Source: Macrostomum lignano
Lineage: Eukaryota
Assembly: GCA_002269645.1 (NCBI GenBank)
Contig: NIVC01000208.1
Span: 248,001 to 312,000, forward strand
Length of the DNA: 64,000 nt
Direction of reading: 5' to 3'
The position numbers and the translations under genes were made by a program. Shown in pieces: positions 1 to 55,215 of the stretch. The notes beneath the pieces were generated by a model that saw nothing but the letters and a program-made list of their open reading frames with translations, was not told where the DNA came from and made no database searches. The stretch's first letter is position 1. Every line of letters begins with the position of its first letter.

Positions 1-3000
1 CTAGAATAAATGGGATCGGGATTCGATAAATGGGATTAGGAGTGCAAGCTTGGAATAAATGGGATTAGGAGTGCAAAATTGGAATAAATGGGATCGGGAT
101 TGGAATAAATGGGATCAGGATTGCAAGATTGGAAAAAATGGGATCGGGATTGGGATAAATCGGATCAGGATTGCAAGATTGGAATCATCGGGATTGGGAT
201 AAATGGGGTCAGGAGTGCAAAATTGGAATAAATGGGATCGGGATTGGGATAGATCGGATCAGGATTGCAAGATTGGAATAAATGGAATCGGGATCGGAAT
301 AAATGGGATCAGGATTGCAAGATTGGAAAAAATGGGATCGGGATTGGGATAAATAGGATCAGGATTGCAAGATTGGAATAAATGGGATCGGGATTGGAAT
401 AAATGGGATCAGGATTGCAAGATTGGAATAAATGGGATCGGGATTGGAATAAATGGGATCAGGATTGCAAGATAGGAATAAATGGGATCGGGATTGAGAT
501 AAATCGGATCAGGATTGCAAGATTGGAATAAATGGAATCGGGATTGGAATAAATGGGATCAGGATTGCAAGATTAGAATAAATGGGATCGGGATTAAGAT
601 AAATGGGATCAGGAGTGCAAGATTGGAATAAATGGGATTAGGAGTGCAAAATTGGAATAAATGGGATCGGGATTGGGATAAATCGGATCAGGATTGCAAG
701 ATTGGAATCATCGGGATTGGGATAAATGGGGTCAGGAGTGCAAAATTGGAATAAATGGGATCGGGATTGGAATAAATGGGATCAGGATTGCAAGATTGGA
801 ATAAATGGGATCGGGATTGGGATAAATCGGATCAGGATTGCAAGATTGGAATAAATGGAATCGGGATTGGAATAAATGGGATCAGGATTGCAAGATTGGA
901 ATAAATGGGATCGGGATTGAGATAATTCGGATCAGGATTGCAAGATTGGAATAAATGGGATCGGGATTGGAATAAATGGGATCAGGATTGCAAGATTAGA
1001 ATAAATGGGATCGGGATTGGAATAAATGGGATCAGGACTGCAAGATTGAAATAAATGGGATCGGGATTGAGATAAATCGGATCGGGATTGAGATAAATCG
1101 GATCAGGATTGCAAGATTGGAATAAATGGGATCGGGATTAGAATAAATGGGATCAGGATTGCAAGATTGGAATAAATGGGATCGGGATTGGAATAAATGG
1201 GATCAGGATTGCAAGATTAGAATAAATGGGATCGGGATTGGGATAAATGGAATCAGGAGTGCAAGATTGGAATAAATGAGATCAGGATTGCAAGATTGGA
1301 ATAAATGGGATCGGGATTGGGATAGATCGGATCAGGATTGCAAGATTGGAATAAATGGAATCGGGATTGGAATAAATGGGATCAGGATTGCAAGATTGGA
1401 ATAAATGGGATCGGGATTGGAATAAATGGGATCAGGATTGCAAGATTGGAATAAATGGGATCGGGATTGAGATAAATCGGATCAGGATTGCAAGATTGGA
1501 ATAAATGGGATCGGGATTGGAATAAATGGGATCAGGATTGCAAGATTAGAATAAATGGGATCGGGATTGGGATAAATGGGATCAGGACTGCAAGATTGAA
1601 ATAAATGGGATCGGGATTGAGATAAATCGGATCGGGATTGAGATAAATCGGATCAGGATTGCAAGATTGGAATAAATGGGATCGGGATTAGAATAAATGG
1701 GATCAGGATTGCAAGATTGGAATAAATGGGATCGGGATTGGAATAAATGGGATCAGGATTGCAAGATTAGAATAAATGGGATCGGGATTGGGATAAATGG
1801 AATCAGGAGTGCAAGATTGGAATAAATGAGATCAGGATTGCAAGATTGGAATAAATGGGATCGGGATTGGGATAGATCGGATCAGGATTGCAAGATTGGA
1901 ATAAATGGAATCGGGATTGGAATAAATGGGATCAGGATTGCAAGATTGGAATAAATGGGATCGGGATTGGAATAAATGGGATCAGGATTGCAAGATTGGA
2001 ATAAATGGGATCGGGATTGAGATAAATCGGATCAGGATTGCAAGATTGGAATAAATGGGATCGGGATTGAAATAAATGGGATCAGGATTGCAAGATTGGA
2101 ATAAATGGGATCGGGATTAGAATAAAAGGGATCAGGATTGCAAGATTGGAATAAATGGGATCGGGATTGGGATAAATAGGATCAGGATTGCAAGATTGGA
2201 ATAAATGGAATCGGGATTGGAATAAATGGGATCAGGATTGCAAGATTGGAATAAATGGGATCGGGATTGAAATAAATGGGATCAGGATTGCAAGATTGGA
2301 ATAAATGGGATCGGGATTGAGATAAATCGGATCAGGATTGCAAGATTGGAATAAATGGGATCGGGATTGGAATAAATGGGATCAGGATTGCAAGACTAGA
2401 ATAAATGGGATCGGGATTCGGATAAATGGGATTAGGAGTGCAAGCTTGGAATAAATGGGATTAGGAGTGCAAAATTGGAATAAATGGGATCGGGATTGGA
2501 ATAAATGGGATCAGGATTGCAAGATTGGAAAAAATGGGATCGGGATTGGGATAAATCGGATCAGGATTGCAAGATTGGAATCATCGGGATTGGGATAAAT
2601 GGGGTCAGGAGTGCAAAATTGGAATAAATGGGATCGGGATTGGGATAGATCGGATCAGGATTGCAAGATTGGAATAAATGGAATCGGGATCGGAATAAAT
2701 GGGATCAGGATTGCAAGATTGGAAAAAATGGGATCGGGATTGGGATAAATAGGATCAGGATTGCAAGATTGGAATAAATGGGATCGGGATTGGAATAAAT
2801 GGGATCAGGATTGCAAGATTGGAATAAATGGGATCGGGATTGGAATAAATGGCATCAGGATTGCAAGATAGGAATAAATGGGATCGGGATTGAGATAAAT
2901 CGGATCAGGATTGCAAGATTGGAATAAATGGAATCGGGATTGGAATAAATGGGATCAGGATTGCAAGATTAGAATAAATGGGATCGGGATTAAGATAAAT

Positions 3001-4100
3001 GGGATCAGGAGTGCAAGATTGGAATAAATGGGATTAGGAGTGCAAAATTGGAATAAATGGGATCGGGATTGGGATAAATCGGATCAGGATTGCAAGATTG
3101 GAATCATCGGGATTGGGATAAATGGGGTCAGGAGTGCAAAATTGGAATAAATGGGATCGGGATTGGAATAAATGGGATCAGGATTGCAAGATTGGAATAA
3201 ATGGGATCGGGATTGGGATAAATCGGATCAGGATTGCAAGATTGGAATAAATGGAATCGGGATTGGAATAAATGGGATCAGGATTGCAAGATTGGAATAA
3301 ATGGGATCGGGATTGAGATAATTCGGATCAGGATTGCAAGATTGGAATAAATGGGATCGGGATTGGAATAAATGGGATCAGGATTGCAAGATTAGAATAA
3401 ATGGGATCGGGATTGGAATAAATGGGATCAGGACTGCAAGATTGAAATAAATGGGATCGGGATTGAGATAAATCGGATCGGGATTGAGATAAATCGGATC
3501 AGGATTGCAAGATTGGAATAAATGGGATCGGGATTAGAATAAATGGGATCAGGATTGCAAGATTGGAATAAATGGGATCGGGATTGGAATAAATGGGATC
3601 AGGATTGCAAGATTAGAATAAATGGGATCGGGATTGGGATAAATGGAATCAGGAGTGCAAGATTGGAATAAATGAGATCAGGATTGCAAGATTGGAATAA
3701 ATGGGATCGGGATTGGGATAGATCGGATCAGGATTGCAAGATTGGAATAAATGGAATCGGGATTGGAATAAATGGGATCAGGATTGCAAGATTGGAATAA
3801 ATGGGATCGGGATTGGAATAAATGGGATCAGGATTGCAAGATTGGAATAAATGGGATCGGGATTGAGATAAATCGGATCAGGATTGCAAGATTGGAATAA
3901 ATGGGATCGGGATTGGAATAAATGGGATCAGGATTGCAAGATTAGAATAAATGGGATCGGGATTGGGATAAATGGGATCAGGAGTGCAAGATTGGAATAA
4001 ATGGGATTAGGAGTGCAAAATTGGAATAAATGGGATCGGGATTGGGATAAATCGGATAAGGATTGCAAGATTGGAACCATCGGGATTGGGATAAATGGGG
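1..4100. repeat. Satellite array, ~50-bp unit (21+29-bp subunits), runs off the window start
   Basis: Unit GGAATAAATGGGATCGGGATT + GGAATAAATGGGATCAGGATTGCAAGATT. Rare variants recur at a 2396-bp offset (CAAGCTT at 45/2441, GATAATTCGG at 921/3317) and at a 550-bp offset (1021/1571). Confidence 0.98.
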
Positions 4101-7900: not shown

Positions 7901-9237
7901 CTTCGCCTGTCCGGAAAGTCGTGAGAATGTGTCAGTCAAGCAAGAAAGCAGCAAGCTGATGACATGGCACACATAAAATTTCAATAATAGACTTATATAT
8001 GTCTATGGTGAAAATTCTTGTTATTCTAGCAGCAAAATTGGGGGCAGGGGCGAGCTCAGCATAAAGTGCTCAATAACCAATGCAACGCGGTGATCAAGCT
8101 TGAAAAATTTAATAGCGAGTTCGTCAAAATGGAAGATTTCCAGGCTTATGCCTACGCTACGAGCGTAGATACCGTCTTGGAATCTCTGTTATTAGTTGTT
8201 ATGACGAACTAATTAAAGTTTATGGAGATGCCGCACCAGGTCAGTCAACGGTTTACAGATGGTACTCAAAGTTCCGTGATGAAGCATTTCCCCTGGCCTC
8301 AGCTCCTCGGACTGGCCGGCCACGGTCAACAAGGACAACGGAACTGATCGGATGATTCAAAAGTTAGTGTCCGAGACCTCGCTGACTTTTTGGAAGTTGA
8401 TAAAACAACAGTGCACGAAATTTTGACCGAGGATTTGCACCTTCGAAACGTTTCTGCCGTCTGGGTTCCTCATGCTCTATCCGAGGAGAACAAGACTGCT
8501 CGCATCAATTGTGCCAAGCAAATCCGCAGGCTTTTTTACAACGAGGGGGTGGAAAACTTTTGCGACAAGTACGTTGTGGAAGATGAGACGTGGGTGTACC
8601 TGAACAACACTGGCACAAAGCAAAACAACAGGTGCTGGCTTGGCCAAGGAGATCATCGGCCCCAGGTTGTCAGGCACTCGGTCGGGAATGCAAAGACAAT
8701 GCTTCTGGTTGCTTTCACTCCAAGCAAGCGCTTCTCCATTAAATCCACAGCCCCGAAGCAAACTGTTGATGCAGATGGCATAGTTGAATTCATTCGGCAC
8801 ACTGGAGACCTATGGCGTACTCTGAGGTCAAAGCCAATTCACCTGTCGGATGTTCTTTGGCAGTGGGACAATGCGCGACCTCACGTAGCCCGTTCTGTGC
8901 AGCAGTACATGGAGTCCCGTGGAGTTCAGCTGGTATTTCAGAGTCCTTACAGCCCAGACTTCAATCTGTGCGACCGTTTTTTGTTCAGTTGGATGAAGAA
9001 TGATTTCTCCAGGCGAGTGTTCAGCGACCACAATGAAGTTCGAGAAGCTGCGTTGCAGTGGGCAAGAGGCCTTGACGAAGATTGCTTAAAAAGAGAGGTT
9101 CAGCGACTCGTTGACCATTGCCAAGCTGTAATCAATGCAACGGGAGATTACATTACCAACTAGTGCTGTTATCGTGTTTTTTGATAGTTCTGACTGATTT
9201 TTTAAATACATTCTCGCGACTTTCTGGACAGCCGAAG
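7901..9237 (+). mobile_element. Full-length mariner transposon (1337 bp) with 30-bp TIRs and TA target duplication
   Basis: Left TIR CTTCGCCTGTCCGGAAAGTCGTGAGAATGT (7901-7930) versus reverse complement of the right end CTTCGGCTGTCCAGAAAGTCGCGAGAATGT (3 mismatches). TA at 7899-7900 and 9238-9239. Confidence 0.97.
8129..9163 (+). pseudogene. Mariner DD34D transposase; catalytic domain open, N-terminal HTH region disrupted
   Basis: WVPHAL, VEDETW, WDNARPH and SPYSPDFNLCD with exactly 34 residues between D2 and D3. The upstream HTH peptide (VYRWYSKFRD...GRP) is cut by a frameshift and by a TGA at ~8352. Confidence 0.93.
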
Positions 9238-13555: not shown

Positions 13556-15240
13556 AAGTGTTTAGGGAGCTTATGGGCTTGTAGCCTACAGGAAGATTTT
13601 ATCTTCTTCTTAATGCTTAATGCTTCTTAGAGCTTCTGACCTAGTGGCAAAAAAGACTAAATTAAAGTGGACAGAGGAAGCAAACCACACCTTCGATGCT
13701 ATGAAAAAATGGATAGCAGAGGATCTCAGACTAGCACACCCGGATTTTAACAACCAGTTTATAGTCTCAAGTGACGCCTCAACTAAGGGAATAGGAGCGA
13801 TGCTTTCGCAGAAAGATGAGATGGGAAGGGAGAGACCGATAGCGTTTACGAGTAGACAGCTTAGAGATGCAGAAACGAGATACGGAATTACTCACCTGGA
13901 ACTCTTAGCAGTTTACCATGCGTTCAGAACTTTTGAACAGTTCTTATACGCTGCTCCCATACCCACACTACTAAGAGTAGACCACGCCCCACTCAGAGGT
14001 TTACTTACAGGTAGAATACTGCAAAACAACCAAATCTTGAGATGGTTACTGTACTTACAGCAGTTCCAGATACAAATCGAATATGTACCTGGAGCTTCAG
14101 TCACACATGCAGTACCAGATGCACTCTCAAGATTATACGACGAGAAACCAACTGATCAAATCAATTACGTAACAATATCTCATCCGATTCCACACCTGCA
14201 AGCACTCAAGGACGCCCAGGCAGAAGATTCATTCTGTCAGCAAATCCGAGCACTTTGGAACGGTGAACCAGCAGTGGAATCACTGGCCCCGAAGTATAGG
14301 CGTCACATCGAGCGACACCTGGCAGACTATGCGGAGATTGCAGGAGTCCTGCACAGAACTGCAGATCAGACACAGCAGATCATCCTACCGTTCAAGTATC
14401 GTGAGACCATCTGTCACTAACTACACGCATTGCCATTAGCGGCACATTTGGGATTTGAGAAAATCTTAGAGAGAATCCGTAGACACTACTTCTGGATCAC
14501 CATGGTATCAGACATCAAGGGATTCTGCAACAGTTGCATAGAGTGCGCCAGGAATAAATCAGGAAAAATCCATAAGGGATTAATTCAGTTTTCGGAGATC
14601 CCAATGAAGCCAATGGACAAATTGTCGGTTGACATAGTGGGTCCTATGGTTCCCACCAAAGTGAGAAATGAGACTGTGACGCACATTCTCACGATTCTCT
14701 GCTGCTTCTCAAAATTCGCATTCGCGATCCCGATCCCAGACCTCACAGCCGAAACGACTGCTGAGACATTGTTTACAGTGTTTTGTACTTTTGGGATCCC
14801 AGTAGAGATGTCCACTGACAATGGGAAGAACTTCACTGCGACATTGTTAGCTGAAGCTCTAGAGATCCTGGGGATTAAACATACACTAGCTACGTCACTA
14901 CACAGCGGAGAACCCAGATCAGTGGCATAAATACCTGCAGGCCACGATGTTCGCCTACAACACGGCAAAGCAAGCATCATCGACCTACTCCCCATTCGAG
15001 TTAGTCTTTGCGAGTCCTTTCAGGTGCACACTGACAGGCTGAAGCCAATGGCCACGCCAACACCACACGTGATGCTTCCTGACCTCAGACCGAGCGACCC
15101 GCAGCGCCACCAGCGACAGCCAAGGCAGCGATTCACCAAGGAAGTGAGCGTGCAGGCGGAGGAGCTGGACGCGCAGGCCGCCACAGCCCGCAAGAAGTAC
15201 AATCTGAGGAGCAAAGTGAAACTTCCTTGACAATTGATGG
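13556..15240 (+). pseudogene. Gypsy pol fragment: RT end, RNase H, integrase
   Basis: SSDASTKGIGAML, YGITHLELLAV, LRVDHAPL, VPDALSR, HLGFEK..RHYFW..CNSCIEC, SVDIVGP, TDNGKNF and VHTDRLKP. In-frame TAA at 14418-14420 and a frameshift near 14908. Confidence 0.95.
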
Positions 15241-15409
15241 CAAGGAAGAGAGGAAGTAGACGGACAATTTTACATTTTAAACCAATATTTATTACGCTGT
15301 CGGTGTGCGCTCTGATAATTAGAATAGAATAGTTCACACTACTCATACGTAGCCTCTATAAACATATTTAATCACTCACAAATAGTTAACCCACCCTTCG
15401 GACAATCAG

Positions 15410-16171
15410 ATGTACTCGACGGAGCTAGACACAGTGGATGACCGTACCATTGACGAGCCGATTAACGCCTATACCCTAGTCAAGCCACTGTTTGCATCGG
15501 CAGAACCAAGCAGGGCAGCCGGAAAGGAGACGAACCTCAGGAACAGCGCTGCTACTGAACAGCAACGGCGACATCTCCAAGCCCAATGGGAGATCAGAAG
15601 ATCGAGAAACGGACTGCCGCAATGCCCAGCAACACTGAGGGAGAGCTACAAACGGGGAGAAAAAGACCTTCCATTCAATGAGTTCTACAACCTTATGGAC
15701 AAACAGCCCATCCAAAGCAAGCCCAATCGGCATGGTGAGATGAAACTATTCAATATTCACCTGGACATGCTGGATGCGCCACGAATTCCAGCTAATGTAG
15801 TGACGCACTTGACAACGAAGCGCATCCTGGCTGACGACAATAACCCAATATGGCTCCTCTCAGACTACAACATTCTACGTAACCGCACAACAATCTTCTT
15901 TCACTATGGGGAACAAGACGCGTTCACCTGCGTCATAATCAAGGTTCTTTGCCGTACTCTAGCCGTCAATCTGATTCACCCTTGGGGCCCGCAACCCAAT
16001 GCGATATACACCACGTTATTTAATTACTTGTCCCACGTGCTGGCCTATCATGGAATACAGAGTAGTCGCCACGAAATGACAAAACTAGTAGTCCGAACGT
16101 ATTCACCGGCGCTGCTCCAGTGGCCACAACTAAAGACGGCACTGGAAGCCTCGCTAGCGCCTACTCTTTAG
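15410..16171 (+). CDS. Gypsy accessory ORF, 253 aa, with a candidate divergent macrodomain (TARG1/OARD1-like) in its C-terminal ~140 aa
   Basis: Open ATG-TAG ORF directly after integrase. By-eye match: KLFNIHLDMLDAP ~ ITYVKGDLFACP; CVIIKVLCRTLAVNLI ~ VAVLKRDGRYIYYLI; IYTTLFNYL...LQWPQLKTALE ~ PTYENLQKSL...LQWENVSAMIE. Not confirmed by HMM search. Confidence 0.6.
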   Translation: MYSTELDTVDDRTIDEPINAYTLVKPLFASAEPSRAAGKETNLRNSAATEQQRRHLQAQWEIRRSRNGLPQCPATLRESYKRGEKDLPFNEFYNLMDKQPIQSKPNRHGEMKLFNIHLDMLDAPRIPANVVTHLTTKRILADDNNPIWLLSDYNILRNRTTIFFHYGEQDAFTCVIIKVLCRTLAVNLIHPWGPQPNAIYTTLFNYLSHVLAYHGIQSSRHEMTKLVVRTYSPALLQWPQLKTALEASLAPTL

Positions 16172-16618
16172 TAGGGATTTCGGGACGCGAAAGTGTAAGG
16201 GCATAAGGAGAAACGAGAGCAGAGACACTGACACAATGGTAGGACAGATGGGTCGTCACGACCGGAAGTCTTATCCTTGTGGCACTCTCACTCGAGGTGC
16301 AATCCTAAGGCAAGAACCAGTCTCACGGAAAGAACTTTGGGAAGCGTCTCGCTACCTGAAATTCTGACGGTGAACTAGGGGAAGCCAGCCCCGTCAATCA
16401 AAGCAAACCCAAACTTAGAATAACCAAGTACAAAGGCAAGGCACTACCAAATTCCATGATCCAGCACTCATTGTTTTATTGTACAAAAATAGTAACCAGC
16501 ACCATTACTCACTCCTACACGTTAAGCACTGCACAACAGTCAATAGCAAAAAATCCAACAAGGGGGATAAGGATAGACAAGAAAAAGCACACGATTATGA
16601 AGTAGCATAGGAAAATTG

Positions 16619-16876
16619 TCAAATTGTCACGACGGTGGACTCGGCTAGGGGGCTCCGACGTCGCCGGCAGCAGACGAACAGCAGAACGAGGCCGAGGATC
16701 ACGAAGACCAGGCCTCCGGCCCCCAGACCGCCAGAGAGTCCACGAACGGTCAGGAGGCCGCTTTCAAGGGACGTCGTCCGAGCTATTTCCACGGCTAGGT
16801 GGGCCTCTAGGCGGCTGACTCGGGCCTCCAGATGAGACAGGAGCTCAATGAGCTGGGCAACCTCATAGCGAGACAT
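16619..16876 (-). CDS. Antisense 85-aa single-pass membrane protein (coiled coil, Gly-rich linker, TM, CC, RRRR) inside the Gypsy element
   Basis: ATG start; 3-4 hydrophobic periodicity over residues 6-41; GGLGAGGLVFVILGLVLLFV followed by CCRRRR; minus-strand AATAAA at 16475-16480. Confidence 0.62.
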   Translation of the reverse strand: MSRYEVAQLIELLSHLEARVSRLEAHLAVEIARTTSLESGLLTVRGLSGGLGAGGLVFVILGLVLLFVCCRRRRSPLAESTVVTI

Positions 16877-17533
16877 GAATTGAAATATGCGAGTGACAAG
16901 AATGAAGCTAGCGATTCGTAATAACGAAGACTAAAAGCTGAAGATAGTCGCTTTAGAAGGAGCAGGGAACCCCAGTGAGGAATTGATATAACACCGCCTC
17001 AGAAGGACGAAGAGAAAGCGAAAATTACAGCCAACCCCTCCGCCGCGGGGAGCGGACCTAAATGTACACTGCGAGAGGGACAGTAAAACCACCCGTGTCG
17101 CCCCAAACCCTCCACGAGACTAAAAATGCAACAAAAGGCCCCACAGAAGTCACAAGTCGAGATTATGTTAGTTCAACCACGGCCCCAACAGAAATAAGAT
17201 ACTGGCGACAGCGGATAACAAACAAACCACACTCGAGAATCGAGATTGATACAAGCAGGGGAAACAGCTAAAATCAGAATACACACAATATTATAACCAA
17301 TTGCTATAATGATATAACTAGAGTGAGGCGCTGGAACAAGAATCAAAACTCGTGCATACTCACTACATAGTTATCCATATATTTATAAAAATGTTTGATT
17401 ACCCATTTACCCTAATTTCAGATCTCAAACGTCTTATATGCTCACAGACCTACTGGTAGTAGGTTGATTAGCAACTCGAGAATAATTTAGGAAGACAATA
17501 GGCCGCATCAACTTGACCAGTCACAGAATTTTC

Positions 17534-18390
17534 AAAAGGGGGATGATATAAGACTTAGAAATCTGAAACGAATTCAAGAGAGCTCTAGGATAAAATCAGG
17601 CAGAAAATAGCAACAGTAGAGAGGGCAAGCAACTGAAAGCAGAGAGGTTAGATGAGGACACGCCCGGAGCTCACCCTTTCATTACAGCGCGAACGCGGCC
17701 CGGACCGACAGCAAAACTGGAACTGGTTGGAACCGGCCCGCGGGGGAGACTGATGAGGAGTTGACCTGGACCCCGCCTGGAGACGAAAGCCGGAGAAGGC
17801 CGGGACCGCACAAGAAGACTGGATCGATGAAGGGGAAAGGGATAACGAACAGTAGGAAAGAGATCTCGGTAAAAGCGCAAACACTTCCTAACTTAGCAAA
17901 TGCGTTTCAGGGCTGCCCCCCCGCTACCATAGAAAAGGGGTTGGTGTGCCTACCAACCAACTAGCTCAAGGCTTATGAGTTATGACTGTGCTAGAGTTGA
18001 GGCTGTGACCTCGTTCAGGACAAATCCTCTTGCTTGCCGTTGCTAAGTTTTTCATCCCCTCGGTTTCGAGAATATTATATAAGTCGGAGCGGAGCGCGGA
18101 AAAACGCACCCGCGGTTTTGCTAGAGAGTTAGCTTGGAGCTCCGTTAGGTTAACCTACCAGATAAACATACTGTGTTCGAGTTCTTTCTTGGTCTGATAT
18201 CCGATCACCGTGGTGAGGATCGAGGAGGGAATTATAGCCGCCAGCCGGGAAACTGAGTATCGATAGTCGTCAGTAGTTATAGCCTTCAAGTCAACGGACT
18301 GCCACAAAACCGCTAGACTACCTATAGGAAAACATAAAGCTGAAGACACATAGAGAAGCCAGATACGAACGACACGTGAAGAGCTATACA
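17534..18390 (+). mobile_element. Polypurine tract plus 3' LTR (~847 bp, 17544-18390)
   Basis: AAAAGGGGGA then TGATATA at 17544; TATATAA near 18076; ends TATACA at 18390. The right boundary is inferred because no second LTR is available for comparison. Confidence 0.72.
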
Positions 18391-47528: not shown

Positions 47529-48294
47529 ATCAAGGTGTGTCTGGAAATCTACGTCAAAACTAAGCCATATTGATTTGAGATTTGAAAACAATGCCGTTTG
47601 AGATAGTATACTCGTTGTTGAGCCCATTTGCAAGATACATCCTCATTGCATCATCCTCAAAGCTAGTCAAAAAGACGCAACAAAGTCAGATCCCTGAGGG
47701 TGGCCATCGTTTCCATGGCAACGCGGGGAAGGATGAAGGGAAGGGAGGGAGGGCAGATAACAGCTTAAGTGCCAAAACCTCTAAAAACCAACTGCCCCAT
47801 CACCCCAGCAGCTGTCAACTGGTAACCTCGCGCAAGCGGCCATCATAAACCAATTAACTATGAGCAGCGTTTAAAAGAATTCAATTCCACTCTCTCTGAC
47901 TTCAGGGGGTCGTTGATAAAACCCACCCTCATGCAGCTAGCAGTAAAAAATTGCAATTAGTTAAAACCTTTATTGATTTGGCAGTGAGGACACCAACCCC
48001 ACCAACCTCTGGACTGCAGCTCGCAAGCATTCAGAAGTTATCCCGAAGGTATTTCCACACAGTGAGCTACGAGTACATGACATGCCATACTCCAGCCTTG
48101 TGTTATGCCATTTTTGATCAACTCCTAATACAAGAATTCAAGTTTTTAGCGTGTAAACTTGTATGAGTGATATTACTTTATAAAAGAATACGTAGAAAAA
48201 GCAAAAAGTCTGTCAGACTCCATATTGAGACACGTACCATATAAGCTTCATATACCAGATACATACCAAGCACCAGACATCAAATATATTACTC

Positions 48295-51200
48295 AGACAT
48301 CAGACATCAGACGCCAGACATCAGAAATCGAGAAATGAGACACCAGATATCAGACACCAGACATCAGACACAAGACATCAGACATCAGACACCAGAGATC
48401 AGATATCACTCAGATATCAGACACAAGACATCAGGCACCAGAGATCAGATATCACCCAGACATCAGACACAAGACATCAGACACCAGAGATCAGATATCA
48501 CTCAGATATCAGACACAAGACATCAGGCACCAGAGATCAGATATCACTCAGATATCAGACACAAGACATCAGACACCAGAGATCAGATATCACTCAGATA
48601 TCAGACACAAGACATCAGACACCAGAGATCAGATATCACTCAGATATCAGACACAAGACATCAGGCACCAGAGATCAGATATCACTCAGATATCAGACAC
48701 AAGACATCAGGCACCAGAGATCAGATATCACTCAGATATCAGACACAAGACATCAGGCACCAGAGATCAGATATCACTCAGATATCAGACACAAGACATC
48801 ACGCACCAGAGATCAGATATCACTCAGATATCAGACACAAGACATCACGCACCAGAGATCAGATATCACTCAGATATCAGACACAAGACATCACGCACCA
48901 GAGATCAGATATCACTCAGATATCAGACACAAGACATCAGGCACCAGAGATCAGATATCACTCAGATATCAGACACAAGACATCAGACACCAGAGATCAG
49001 ATATCACTCAGATATCAGACACAAGACATCAGACACCAGAGATCAGATATCACTCAGATATCAGACACCAGACATCAGGCATCAGAGATCAGATATCACT
49101 CAGATATCAGACACAAGACATCAGGCATCAGAGATCAGATATCACTCAGATATCAGACACAAGACATCACGCACCAGAGATCAGATATCACTCAGATATC
49201 AGACACAAGACATCAGGCACTAGAGATCAGATATCGCTCAGATATCAGACACAAGACATCAGGCACCAGAGATCAGATATCACTCAGATATCAGACACAA
49301 GACATCAGGCATTAGAGATCAGATATCACTCAGATATCAGACACCAGACATCAGGCACCAGAGATCAGATATCACTCAGATATCAGACACAAGACATCAG
49401 ACACCAGAGATCAGATATCACTCAGATATCAGACACAAGACATCAGGCACCAGAGATCAGATATCACTCAGATATCAGACACAAGACATCACGCACCAGA
49501 GATCAGATATCACTCAGATATCAGACACAAGACATCACGCACCAGAGATCAGATATCACTCAGATATCAGACACAAGACATCAGGCACCAGAGATCAGAT
49601 ATCACTCAGATATCAGACACAAGACATCAGGCACCAGAGATCAGATATCACTCAGATATCAGACACAAGACATCACGCACCAGAGATCAGATATCACTCA
49701 GATATCAGACACAAGACATCAGGCACTAGAGATCAGATATCGCTCAGATATCAGACACAAGACATCAGACACCAGAGATCAGATATCACTCAGATATCAG
49801 ACACAAGACATCACGCACCAGAGATCAGATATCACTCAGATATCAGACATCAGACACCAGAGATCAGGTATCATTCAGATATCAGACACCAGACATCAGA
49901 CACAAGACATCAGACATCAGACACCAGAGATCAGATATCACTCAGATATCAGACACCAGACATCAGACTTTAGACACCAGACATCAGACACAAGACATCA
50001 GACATCAGGCACCAGAGATCAGATATCACCCAGACATCAGACACAAGACATCAGACATCAGGCACTAGAGATCAGATATCACCCAGACATCAGACACAAG
50101 ACATCAGGCACCAGAGATCAGATATCACCCAGACATCAGACACAAGACATCAGGCACCAGAGATCAGATATCACTCAGATATCAGACACAAGACATCAGA
50201 CACCAGAGATCAGATATCACTCAGATATCAGACACAAGACATCAGGCACTAGAGATCAGATATCACTCAGATATCAGACACAAGACATCAGGCATCAGAG
50301 ATCAGATATCACTCAGATATCAGACACAAGACATCAGGCATCAGAGATCAGATATCACTCAGATATCAGACACAAGACATCAGGCATCAGAGATCAGATA
50401 TCACTCAGATATCAGACACAAGACATCAGGCACCAGAGATCAGATATCACTCAGATATCAGACACAAGACATCAGGCACCAGAGATCAGATATCACTCAG
50501 ATATCAGACACAAGACATCAGGCACCAGAGATCAGATATCACTCAGATATCAGACACAAGACATCACGCACCAGAGATCAGATATCACTCAGATATCAGA
50601 CACAAGACATCAGGCACCAGAGATCAGATATCACTCAGATATCAGACACAAGACATCAGGCACCAGAGATCAGATATCACTCAGATATCAGACACAAGAC
50701 ATCAGGCACCAGAGATCAGATATCACTCAGATATCAGACACAAGACATCAGGCACCAGAGATCAGATATCACTCAGATATCAGACACAAGACATCAGACA
50801 CCAGAGATCAGATATCACTCAGATATCAGACACAAGACATCAGGCATCAGAGATCAGATATCACCCAGACATCAGACACAAGACATCAGACACCAGACAT
50901 CAGGCATCAGAGATCAGATATCACTCAGATATCAGACACAAGACATCAGGCATCAGAGATCAGATATCACTCAGATATCAGACACAAGACATCAGACACC
51001 AGACATCAGACATCAGACATCAGACACAAGACATCAGGCACCAGAGATCAGATATCGCTCAGATATCAGACACAAGACATCAGGCACCAGAGATCAGATA
51101 TCACTCAGATATCAGACACAAGACATCAGACACCAGAGATCAGATATCACTCAGATATCAGACACAAGACATCAGGCATTAGAGATCAGATATCACTCAG

Positions 51201-54200
51201 ATATCAGACACCAGACATCAGGCACCAGAGATCAGATATCACTCAGATATCAGACACAAGACATCAGACACCAGAGATCAGATATCACTCAGATATCAGA
51301 CACAAGACATCAGGCACCAGAGATCAGATATCACTCAGATATCAGACACAAGACATCACGCACCAGAGATCAGATATCACTCAGATATCAGACACAAGAC
51401 ATCACGCACCAGAGATCAGATATCACTCAGATATCAGACACAAGACATCAGGCACCAGAGATCAGATATCACTCAGATATCAGACACAAGACATCAGGCA
51501 CCAGAGATCAGATATCACTCAGATATCAGACACAAGACATCACGCACCAGAGATCAGATATCACTCAGATATCAGACACAAGACATCAGGCACTAGAGAT
51601 CAGATATCGCTCAGATATCAGACACAAGACATCAGACACCAGAGATCAGATATCACTCAGATATCAGACACAAGACATCACGCACCAGAGATCAGATATC
51701 ACTCAGATATCAGACATCAGACACCAGAGATCAGGTATCATTCAGATATCAGACACCAGACATCAGACACAAGACATCAGACATCAGACACCAGAGATCA
51801 GATATCACTCAGATATCAGACACCAGACATCAGACTTTAGACACCAGACATCAGACACAAGACATCAGACATCAGGCACCAGAGATCAGATATCACCCAG
51901 ACATCAGACACAAGACATCAGACATCAGGCACTAGAGATCAGATATCACCCAGACATCAGACACAAGACATCAGGCACCAGAGATCAGATATCACCCAGA
52001 CATCAGACACAAGACATCAGGCACCAGAGATCAGATATCACTCAGATATCAGACACAAGACATCAGACACCAGAGATCAGATATCACTCAGATATCAGAC
52101 ACAAGACATCAGGCACTAGAGATCAGATATCACTCAGATATCAGACACAAGACATCAGGCATCAGAGATCAGATATCACTCAGATATCAGACACAAGACA
52201 TCAGGCATCAGAGATCAGATATCACTCAGATATCAGACACAAGACATCAGGCATCAGAGATCAGATATCACTCAGATATCAGACACAAGACATCAGGCAC
52301 CAGAGATCAGATATCACTCAGATATCAGACACAAGACATCAGGCATCAGAGATCAGATATCACTCAGATATCAGACACAAGACATCAGACACCAGAGATC
52401 AGATATCACTCAGATATCAGACACAAGACATCAGGCACCAGAGATCAGATATCACTCAGATATCAGACACAAGACATCAGGCACCAGAGATCAGATATCA
52501 CTCAGATATCAGACACAAGACATCACGCACCAGAGATCAGATATCACTCAGATATCAGACACAAGACATCAGGCACCAGAGATCAGATATCACTCAGATA
52601 TCAGACACAAGACATCAGGCACCAGAGATCAGATATCACTCAGATATCAGACACAAGACATCAGGCACCAGAGATCAGATATCACTCAGATATCAGACAC
52701 AAGACATCAGGCACCAGAGATCAGATATCACTCAGATATCAGACACAAGACATCAGGCACTAGAGATCAGATATCACTCAGATATCAGACACAAGACATC
52801 ACGCACCAGAGATCAGACATCACTCAGATATCAGACACAAGACATCAGGCACCAGAGATCAGATATCACTCAGATATCAGACACAAGACATCAGGCATCA
52901 GAGATCAGATATCACCCAGACATCAGACACAAGACATCAGACACCAGACATCAGGCATCAGAGATCAGATATCACTCAGATATCAGACACAAGACATCAG
53001 ACACCAGAGATCAGATATCACTCAGATATCAGACACAAGACATCAGACACCAGAGATCAGATATCACTCAGATATCAGACACAAGACATCAGGCACCAGA
53101 GATCAGATATCACTCAGATATCAGACACAAGACATCAGACACCAGACATCAGACATCAGACATCAGACACAAGACATCAGGCACCAGAGATCAGATATCG
53201 CTCAGATATCAGACACAAGACATCAGGCACCAGAGATCAGATATCACTCAGATATCAGACACAAGACATCAGACACCAGAGATCAGATATCACTCAGATA
53301 TCAGACACAAGACATCAGGCACCAGAGATCAGATATCGCTCAGATATCAGACACAAGACATCAGGCACCAGAGATCAGATATCACTCAGATATCAGACAC
53401 AAGACATCAGACACCAGAGATCAGATATCACTCAGATATCAGACACAAGACATCAGACACCAGAGATCAGATATCACTCAGATATCAGACACAAGACATC
53501 AGGCATCAGAGATCAGATATCACTCAGATATCAGACACAAGACATCAGGCACCAGAGATCAGATATCACTCAGATATCAGACACAAGACATCAGACACCA
53601 GAGATCAGATATCACTCAGATATCAGACACAAGACATCAGACACCAGAGATCAGATATCACCCAGACATCAGACACAAGACATCAGGCACTAGAGATCAG
53701 ATATCACTCAGATATCAGACATCAGACACCAGAGATCAGGTATCATTCAGATATCAGACATCAGACACCAGAGATCAGATATCACTCAGATATCAGACAC
53801 AAGACATCAGGCACTAGAGATCAGATATCACTCAGATATCAGACACAAGACATCAGGCACCAGAGATCAGATATCACCCAGACATCAGACACAAGACATC
53901 AGACACCAGAGATCAGATATCACCCAGACATCAGACACAAGACATCAGACACCAGAGATCAGATATCACTCAGATATCAGACACAAGACATCAGACACCA
54001 GAGATCAGATATCACTCAGATATCAGACACAAGACATCAGACACCAGAGATCAGATATCACTCAGATATCAGACACAAGACATCAGGCACCAGAGATCAG
54101 ATATCACTCAGATATCAGACACAAGACATCAGACACCAGAGATCAGATATCACTCAGATATCAGACACAAGACATCAGACACCAGAGATCAGATATCACC

Positions 54201-54590
54201 CAGACATCAGACACAAGACATCAGACACCAGAGATCAGATATCACTCAGATATCAGACACAAGACATCAGGCACCAGAGATCAGACATCACTCAGATATC
54301 AGACACAAGACATCAGACACCAGAGATCAGATATCACTCAGATATCAGACACAAGACATCAGACACCAGAGATCAGATATCGCTCAGATATCAGACACAA
54401 GACATCAGACTTTAGACACCAGACATCAGACACAAGACATCAGACTTTAGACACCAGACATCAGACACAAGACATCAGACATCAGACACCAGAGATCAGA
54501 TATCACCCAGACATCAGACACAAGACATCAGGCATCAGAAATCTGACACCAGACATCAGACTTTAGACATCAGACATCAGACATCAAACA
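48295..54590. repeat. 46-bp satellite, ~6.3 kb
   Basis: CAGAGATCAGATATCACTCAGATATCAGACACAAGACATCAGGCAC; rare variants recur at a 1867-bp offset. Confidence 0.98.
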
Positions 54591-55215
54591 TGTACATTTG
54601 CGCTGAAGCCTGCTAGATGCTATTCTTGACATAATTGTAAATCATAAAAAAAACAGTAAAGTCAGTGTTGCTGAATATGTGGAGTTTCATTTTATTGATG
54701 AGTCTTTCAGAGACAATTCACAAATTTCTAACACGAGTTATTCTGAGAATCGAATACTGCATAACAACACAGATATTTATTCAACAATAGTCAAACTACA
54801 AAATAAATATAAATTTACAAAAGTCGACGCAAGCATCAAAACGAAATCTACTAGTAAATCCGGAAAATTGGAGGACACAATTATTAGAACAAAATCAAAA
54901 GGTTTTGAATGCAGAAATGTTGCAAGAGTTCAAATGAAATTAAACTACTTTTTGAGGCTATTTTTGGATAGTTTTCTATTGACCTTTGACAATATTTAAA
55001 GACAAATTGATAGCAATAGCAATTTAACTCCAAATGTGAACTTGGTCAGTAGTTTCTTTGCGTCAAGGGTCCGCAAACTATTCCCATCTATTCCCTCTCC
55101 CTCTCTCATATGAGCTGGCTTCTTTAGCTGTCCCATGGGGTAACTAGGCGATATGGAGCTGAAAGAAATTCCAAACGGCAATAATTCTTTCAGATGCGTC
55201 AAAACACACAGGCTG

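Follow-up and report, generated by a model that had tools for sequence, protein, structure and literature searches.

A conserved antisense gene for a predicted trimeric membrane protein in env-carrying Gypsy elements of Macrostomum lignano

A 64,000-nt stretch of the Macrostomum lignano genome (contig NIVC01000208.1, positions 248,001 to 312,000; hereafter the window) contains a Gypsy element in which an open 85-aa ATG frame lies antisense to pol, and this raises the questions of whether such a frame is a gene and, if it is, what a retroelement would do with it. A preliminary description had proposed a FAST-fusogen-like membrane protein that could substitute for env. The frame lies where that description had placed it, between the end of the integrase at 15230 and the 3′ LTR at 17547-18388, and its product has all of the motifs that had been listed: heptad positions V6/L9/L13/L16/V20/L23/L27, an RVSRLE motif at R19-E24, a dicysteine at C69-C70 and a basic cluster at R71-R74. 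It is not the sole frame behind pol, as a 253-aa sense frame, ORF3, precedes it. The features of the element are as follows, in window coordinates:

13647..15230 (+), pol remnant with RT connection/RNase H and integrase (Pfam RT_RNaseH, Integrase_H2C2, rve)
15408..15409 (+), splice acceptor AG directly before the ORF3 ATG, at the junction of contigs from runs X5 and X6
15410..16171 (+), ORF3, sense accessory gene of 253 aa with a predicted C-terminal Ulp1/SENP (clan CE) fold
16475..16480 (-), AATAAA, a weak candidate for an antisense poly(A) signal
16619..16876 (-), antisense small membrane-protein gene, 85 aa from the ATG: coiled coil at about residues 6-52, Gly hinge 46-55, hydrophobic core 56-68, CC, RRRR, 15-residue tail
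16952..16957 (-), TATA-like hexamer 81 nt before the ATG, a weak candidate for an internal antisense promoter
17534..17543 (+), polypurine tract, recognized from sequence
17547..18388 (+), 3′ LTR of 842 bp with TA at both ends, ~70% identical to the LTR of the C4628 copy

Elsewhere in the window, large tandem arrays that are strongly strand-skewed, with units of ~50 nt and 46 nt, occupy 1-4100 and 48227-55000, and a 271-codon frame at 8348-9163 (+), which by eye resembles a mariner-type transposase, lies among other transposon remnants.

Frames of this kind can arise by chance at a low rate. With a filter set after the ORF was seen (an ATG ORF of 60-210 aa with a hydrophobic span and at least three K/R behind it), 10 of 500 shuffles of 16172-17547 (2%) yielded a passing ORF, and the antisense ORF was the one that passed among the 94 qualifying ATG ORFs of the window. 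The frame had been described as a single copy, and a protein search of the genome corrects this, as 22 of 22 candidates matched at identities of 33-100%; 21 of these matches keep an open frame that starts with ATG-Ser, and the remaining one, C99, has a frame shift. A local profile run over the fetched loci added three further frame-shifted copies, which makes four, and one remnant. Assembly indels were contradicted by all four sequencing runs examined, so some of the frame breaks may be assembly errors, and the C2433 and C2003 matches are not independent, being near-identical duplicates of the whole window region. The 13 non-identical intact proteins among the 21 (alignment A1) are 79-90 aa long and form two subfamilies whose length difference is one heptad, and outside its own subfamily the window protein is 31-39% identical to the others.

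The check on conservation and dN/dS that had been suggested for the ORF came out in its favor. Pooled over six separate pairs, pN/pS in the antisense frame was 0.31; dN/dS was 0.05/0.44 and 0.10/0.66 in two unsaturated pairs and 1.49 in one very close pair, where it rests on 5 changes. The other five frames contain stops in 12-13 of the 13 sequences. That the ORF is no gene at all, having arisen by chance or as a by-product of some feature on the sense strand, would agree with the 2% of shuffles, with a pN/pS of 0.46 in the opposite frame that shares third positions, and with the gathering of homologues by protein search, which biases toward open frames. That opposite frame, however, is stopped in 13/13 sequences, an excess of third-position changes cannot arise from such a bias, and the start codon, the heptad indel and the order of motifs are preserved even at 33-39% identity, so that this explanation is already largely refuted and we regard it as very improbable. 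Conservation together with codon-level selection settles the matter, and the small antisense ORF is a gene under purifying selection. It is also a dispensable one, frame-shifted in four copies, absent from C1674, whose two LTRs are 99.1% alike and whose pol is 97% identical to that of C4628, and lost from C368, which has env. In an integrase tree, the carriers and two non-carriers form one clade (support 100/99), which under the midpoint root, the only one used, agrees with a gain before the split followed by loss.

We then considered whether the gene could stand in for env. The window copy has no 5′ LTR, gag, env or RT and is for that reason uninformative on the env of its family; its pol remnant is 5′-truncated, with a stop at 14418-14420 and integrase deletions relative to the C4628 copy, to which the window element is 87-95% identical with gaps. 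Compared with C4628, the segment 13647-18388 looks mosaic (pol 87%, accessory region 95%, LTR ~70%), and the LTRs of the window, C4628, C1878 and C1674 start and end with TA and not with the usual TG..CA. The C4628 copy is complete, with LTRs that are 99.5% alike, a first ORF of 1218 codons in which Gag is followed in frame by an envelope, and then a pol with the order protease-RT-RNase H-integrase. The C4628 env scores above the cut-off for PF24664 (E 2.3e-8) over about 140 residues, as does that of C1189, and has a hydrophobic N-terminal stretch, a basic cleavage-like site and a C-terminal span; phmmer searches of env against the PDB gave no match, and a single-sequence env model had a pLDDT of 30. 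Judged from sequence, the family env is class III (gB-type) in the order GAG-ENV-POL, an arrangement with HSV/gB-type env that is known from elements of nematodes, bryozoans and flatworms (PMC13524379). The elements studied here resemble GAG-ENV-POL errantiviruses in gene order, class III-type env and recent multi-copy insertions (PMC13524379). At L088 (C1189), env falls within one uninterrupted frame of 2458 codons, and frames of ~2500 codons are also open in several distant lineages; together these suggest a single Gag-Env-Pol polyprotein.

Across 19 mapped regions, five are full-length with two LTRs and the remainder are mostly fragments. All five full-length copies carry env. The antisense ORF is intact in C4628, C1878 and C1189, frame-shifted in C1405 and absent from C1674, and env is present in 4/4 full-length two-LTR copies holding the ORF. 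C1524 likewise has env and a shifted ORF, and none of the 19 regions showed the ORF in a gag-pol copy lacking env. We also looked for an intact member of the subfamily of 79-80 aa and found fragments only, so the env tally excludes that subfamily. As the family carries its own class III env, we reject the proposal of an env substitute.

What the gene encodes was examined in the 13 aligned proteins. All 13 have Ser2, an R-h-x-x-h-E motif, a Gly hinge preceded by 45-52 residues with a predicted coiled coil, a span with Cys at its end (CC in 10/13), at least three juxtamembrane K/R and a tail of 9-15 residues, and none has a Cys in the N-terminal part, which precludes a cystine noose. By hydropathy and charge, 12/13 have a single 25-residue uncharged stretch; in the window protein it covers residues 46-70, Gly hinge included, and is long enough for a span, contrary to the short hydrophobic core noted earlier. 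R-h-x-x-h-E motifs are linked with trimeric coiled coils. The predicted trimer received support from a three-copy model with a score of 0.64, compared with 0.00 for the best control, with a pLDDT of 77-78 and contacts at heptad positions across residues 6-52, at least 90% of which were shared by repeat runs. This scoring mark is reached by 21/30 microbial and 17/29 eukaryotic homo-oligomers and by 0/23 and 0/30 monomers; the trimer was the sole oligomer state modelled, generic coiled coils can pass through likeness to solved ones, and solved coiled-coil trimers resemble the model weakly. We therefore describe residues 6-52 as a predicted parallel trimeric coiled coil.

The orientation of this rod can be read in two ways. 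Net charge is +3 behind the span and 0 to +1 before it, and a Tyr-x-x-L/V motif lies behind the span in 11/13 proteins (it is missing from those of the window and C4628); charge, Cys and Tyr all point to an inside C-terminus. Candidate acylation features, from sequence alone, are the Cys at the span end, with residue 2 being Ser throughout, in keeping with the earlier remark that there is no N-terminal myristoylation Gly. The alternative is a tail-anchored protein with a cytosolic coiled coil that would serve as an adaptor between ER or mitochondrial membranes and either capsids or host factors; basic tails steer tail-anchored proteins to mitochondria. The lack of a signal peptide and the tail of 9-15 residues fit that geometry, the class being defined by one span within 50 aa of the C-terminus and an N-terminus inside (PMC13220792), but Cys, a basic cluster and a Tyr signal behind the span are what a cytosolic flank typically carries, and the positive-inside rule speaks against it, and we think it unlikely to be the correct topology.

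The membrane-proximal part invites comparison with viral fusogens. FAST proteins are acylated, carry a basic cluster and have an ectodomain of <40 residues and an endodomain of ~40-140 that includes an amphipathic helix, to which reovirus p10 adds a cystine noose, a Gly run and a Cys pair (PMC7412057, PMC12945298), and p10 needs its Gly/span/Cys/basic module (PMC7412057). The antisense protein is like FAST proteins in being small, predicted single-pass and equipped with a juxtamembrane polybasic cluster, and like p10 in having a Gly run at the start of the span, a Cys pair at its end and that polybasic cluster. It is unlike them in having no noose, no 40-140 aa endodomain, no amphipathic tail helix and no Gly2, and in place of an ectodomain of <40 residues that serves as a flexible fusion peptide it has 45-52 residues and a predicted coiled coil, followed by a tail of 9-15 residues versus ~40-140. 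On these grounds (N-terminal part, tail, myristoylation Gly and cystine noose) membership in the FAST family was rejected; of the FAST-like architecture proposed at first, the p10- and sORF2-like membrane module stands, whereas the size of the ectodomain, the length of the tail, myristoylation and the noose do not fit.

The earlier mention of FAST-like small ORFs in env-less insect Gypsy elements proved sound, as such sORF2 proteins have been described in the Drosophila MDG1 group and other insect Gypsy elements (bioRxiv 10.1101/2025.03.14.642691). The antisense protein shares with them a similar length, a small single-pass form, and a basic cluster and Tyr behind the span; sORF2 is likewise under purifying selection and sometimes downstream of pol (bioRxiv 10.1101/2025.03.14.642691; PMC13486581). 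sORF2 is sense-encoded and mostly myristoylated, with a ~30 aa ectodomain and a longer tail in env-less elements (bioRxiv 10.1101/2025.03.14.642691; PMC13486581), whereas the gene described here is antisense, without a myristoylation Gly, with a long predicted trimeric coiled coil and a short tail, in env-carrying elements. In the account of the insect proteins, all 105 candidates are on the sense strand and were selected by a myristoylation motif, with palmitoylated variants left out of the selection; sORF2, which has a Tyr behind the span, co-located with capsids at the plasma membrane and was negative in the syncytium and content-mixing assays reported there (bioRxiv 10.1101/2025.03.14.642691).

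It is quite improbable, in our estimate, that the protein is nonetheless a stand-alone FAST-type cell-cell fusogen, acting in addition to Env or in its place. Such a role would draw on the p10-like Gly run, Cys pair and basic cluster, on matches of Orthoreo_P10 to 2/13 members (best E 0.069, not significant), on the occurrence of FAST proteins in coronaviruses, which are enveloped (bioRxiv 10.1101/2025.03.14.642691), and on the 79-80 aa subfamily, which is known from fragments only and lies outside the env tally; weighing against it are the env in every full-length carrier seen, the sizes of N-terminal part and tail, the missing amphipathic tail helix, Gly2 and ectodomain Cys, and the sense orientation of 105/105 insect candidates.

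Evidence on transcription comes from three runs of three studies, guessed to be RNA and available as contigs only, which carry no strand, start or level. All three cover ORF3 through to the 3′ LTR with almost no pol (run X16 covers 30/30 bins), and contigs from X5 and X6 start exactly at 15410, joined to the leader behind the 5′ LTR; the 8649 bases skipped in C4628 have GT..AG ends, and the ORF3 start codon has CAG before it in the window, C4628, C1674, C1878 and C1113 copies. These observations indicate that ORF3 is made from a spliced sense RNA. Of 40 variants listed, 21 were checked and all of these agree with C4628, so that the spliced RNA comes from the intact type and not from the window copy, and the intact family appears to be transcribed. 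The same spliced RNA crosses the small ORF on the opposite strand, which explains the contigs there, and it is from selection alone that we infer expression of the antisense gene. Possible antisense signals are weak. Within 500 nt, AATAAA occurs in 8/13 sequences, ATTAAA in 2 more and neither in 3, with hexamers on the other strand in 7/13; a TATA-like hexamer, a motif chosen by eye, lies at -79 to -102 in 8/9 sequences, and 7/9, the window not among them, have a GC word behind it at -67 to -77.

Two to three conserved accessory genes lie behind pol in these elements. ORF3 has 30 matches in the genome, and its model (mean pLDDT 51, mostly 60-75 over residues 112-250) gave a structure match of Z 12.1 with an rmsd of 3.5 Å over 144 residues, the top rows being SENP/Ulp1 and related proteases; Foldseek (E 4.8e-4 to SENP/Ulp1) and an ESM Atlas lead point to the same fold, and word-index searches with ORF3 and env gave no matches. 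No Cys precedes the last helix in 9/9 aligned ORF3 rows, the placement of the catalytic site being taken from the model, so ORF3 is predicted to be a pseudo-protease of Ulp1/SENP fold, which might act as a SUMO decoy against SUMO-dependent silencing. A third gene of ~105-113 aa, sense and head-to-head with the antisense ORF, is present in most relatives, for example at L068 (C1878:50186-50500), where an acceptor-like AG precedes it, and is missing from the window and C4628.

Small antisense membrane ORFs are not confined to this clade. Env has 78 scored matches in the genome, and 12 of 14 further env loci that were fetched have pol. Two of these lineages, C1884 and C172, both in a second clade of the integrase tree, carry different antisense small ORFs 0.7-2 kb behind pol, each with a span, a Cys cluster and basic residues:

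L141:6947-7147 (+) and L142:5554-5820 (-), two differing antisense small membrane ORFs of the second env-bearing clade

The C172 type has 21 matches with the ATG kept and a pN/pS of 0.28, and is less certain since 8/9 have no stop in the opposite frame that shares third positions (0.35); the C1884 type starts with Met-Gly and has three copies, two of them broken. At L154-L156 (C108, C2283, C625) there are three copies of an ORF of 81 aa whose product has a single span and a basic tail and is 34-36% similar to the C1884 type; gag, env and pol gave no match in 26 kb of C108. Other env lineages have sense Cys-rich ORFs behind pol (L135, L137, L143, L144), which by eye resemble tandem RING fingers, and one type of these starts with Met-Gly, as in a myristoylation motif.

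The reading that we favor, at a probability of roughly 40%, is that the ORF serves an env-carrying Gypsy element of the GAG-ENV-POL order as an antisense accessory gene, and that its product, a predicted single-pass trimeric membrane protein, would act beside Env as a tether or scaffold that holds particles at the membrane. The protein would be made from its own antisense transcript, started at a promoter between the small ORF and the 3′ LTR, and would insert with its N-terminus outside and its C-terminus inside, be palmitoylated at its Cys residues and traffic through the Tyr-x-x-hydrophobic signal. The rod, on its flexible Gly hinge, might then cluster capsids or Env or draw membranes near, with fusion left to Env, and at cell-cell contacts it could help Env to pass particles between cells. 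Several points count against this: minus-strand RNA evidence is absent, the contigs over the ORF being accounted for by the spliced sense RNA; the span has the geometry of a tail anchor, with the N-terminus inside; the gene can be lost or broken; nothing ties the protein directly to Gag or Env; and the trimer alone was modelled, by a score that generic coiled coils may pass.

The same features could also belong to an interference or protective factor, which would use the Tyr signal to remove Env, the Env receptor or an immune sensor from the surface and could be produced by silent or truncated copies as well. Vpu and adenovirus RID would be its analogues. The Tyr-x-x-L/V motif of 11/13 proteins, an antisense position that would uncouple the protein from genomic RNA, an ORF that is intact where pol is broken or missing (window, C832, C1391) and weak, below-cut-off Pfam similarities to the juxtamembrane parts of DAP10, ErbB1 and adenovirus E3 are consistent with it, but the window and C4628 proteins have no such Tyr, intactness in broken copies may merely mirror youth, and there is no known partner; we hold this role to be possible, though on the unlikely side.

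Relatives of the gene outside this genome were not found with a profile of A1 against 1.84 billion representatives, which returned the protein itself and five long proteins matched over the coiled-coil part; the self-match is a one-member cluster in NCBI/UniRef and may stem from the same genome. Viral contigs gave 112 pattern matches with none confirmed, and the ESM Atlas a best feature score of 0.77 with no useful structure match. These libraries contain few unannotated animal transposon ORFs, so the blanks carry little weight. In the literature searched, which covered few subscription papers, we found no report of an antisense membrane ORF or of a Ulp1-like ORF in an env-carrying animal Gypsy element; the words ‘antisense’ and ‘accessory’ do not occur in the main text of PMC13524379, whose supplements may list these elements. 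Plant elements do have antisense ORFs in the same position and polarity, and gene23 of Grande has its own upstream antisense promoter (PMC7264820), but the plant proteins are described there as nuclear or of unassigned function and not as small membrane proteins, and homology is not expected.

The evidence establishes a real, conserved and new accessory gene of a “complex” invertebrate errantivirus, neither an env substitute nor a FAST family member. We also entertain a broader proposal, itself doubtful, that invertebrate GAG-ENV-POL errantiviruses are complex retrovirus-like viruses and carry a modular accessory cassette in which a spliced, dead SUMO-protease decoy is combined with an antisense FAST-like protein that would open cell-to-cell routes with Env; the mRNA of the latter would have the polarity of antisense piRNAs and so would escape them, and antisense membrane genes of this kind, present in at least two env-bearing clades, would have been missed by sense-only, myristoylation-based sORF2 screens. 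Env and sORF2 are regarded as two alternatives by which a Gypsy element becomes infectious. In the lineage described here, which carries env, a small antisense membrane gene with part of the FAST toolkit is kept under purifying selection. Screens as now designed are blind to such a gene, and its presence suggests that invertebrate Gypsy elements evolved accessory-gene complexity of the HIV/HTLV type.
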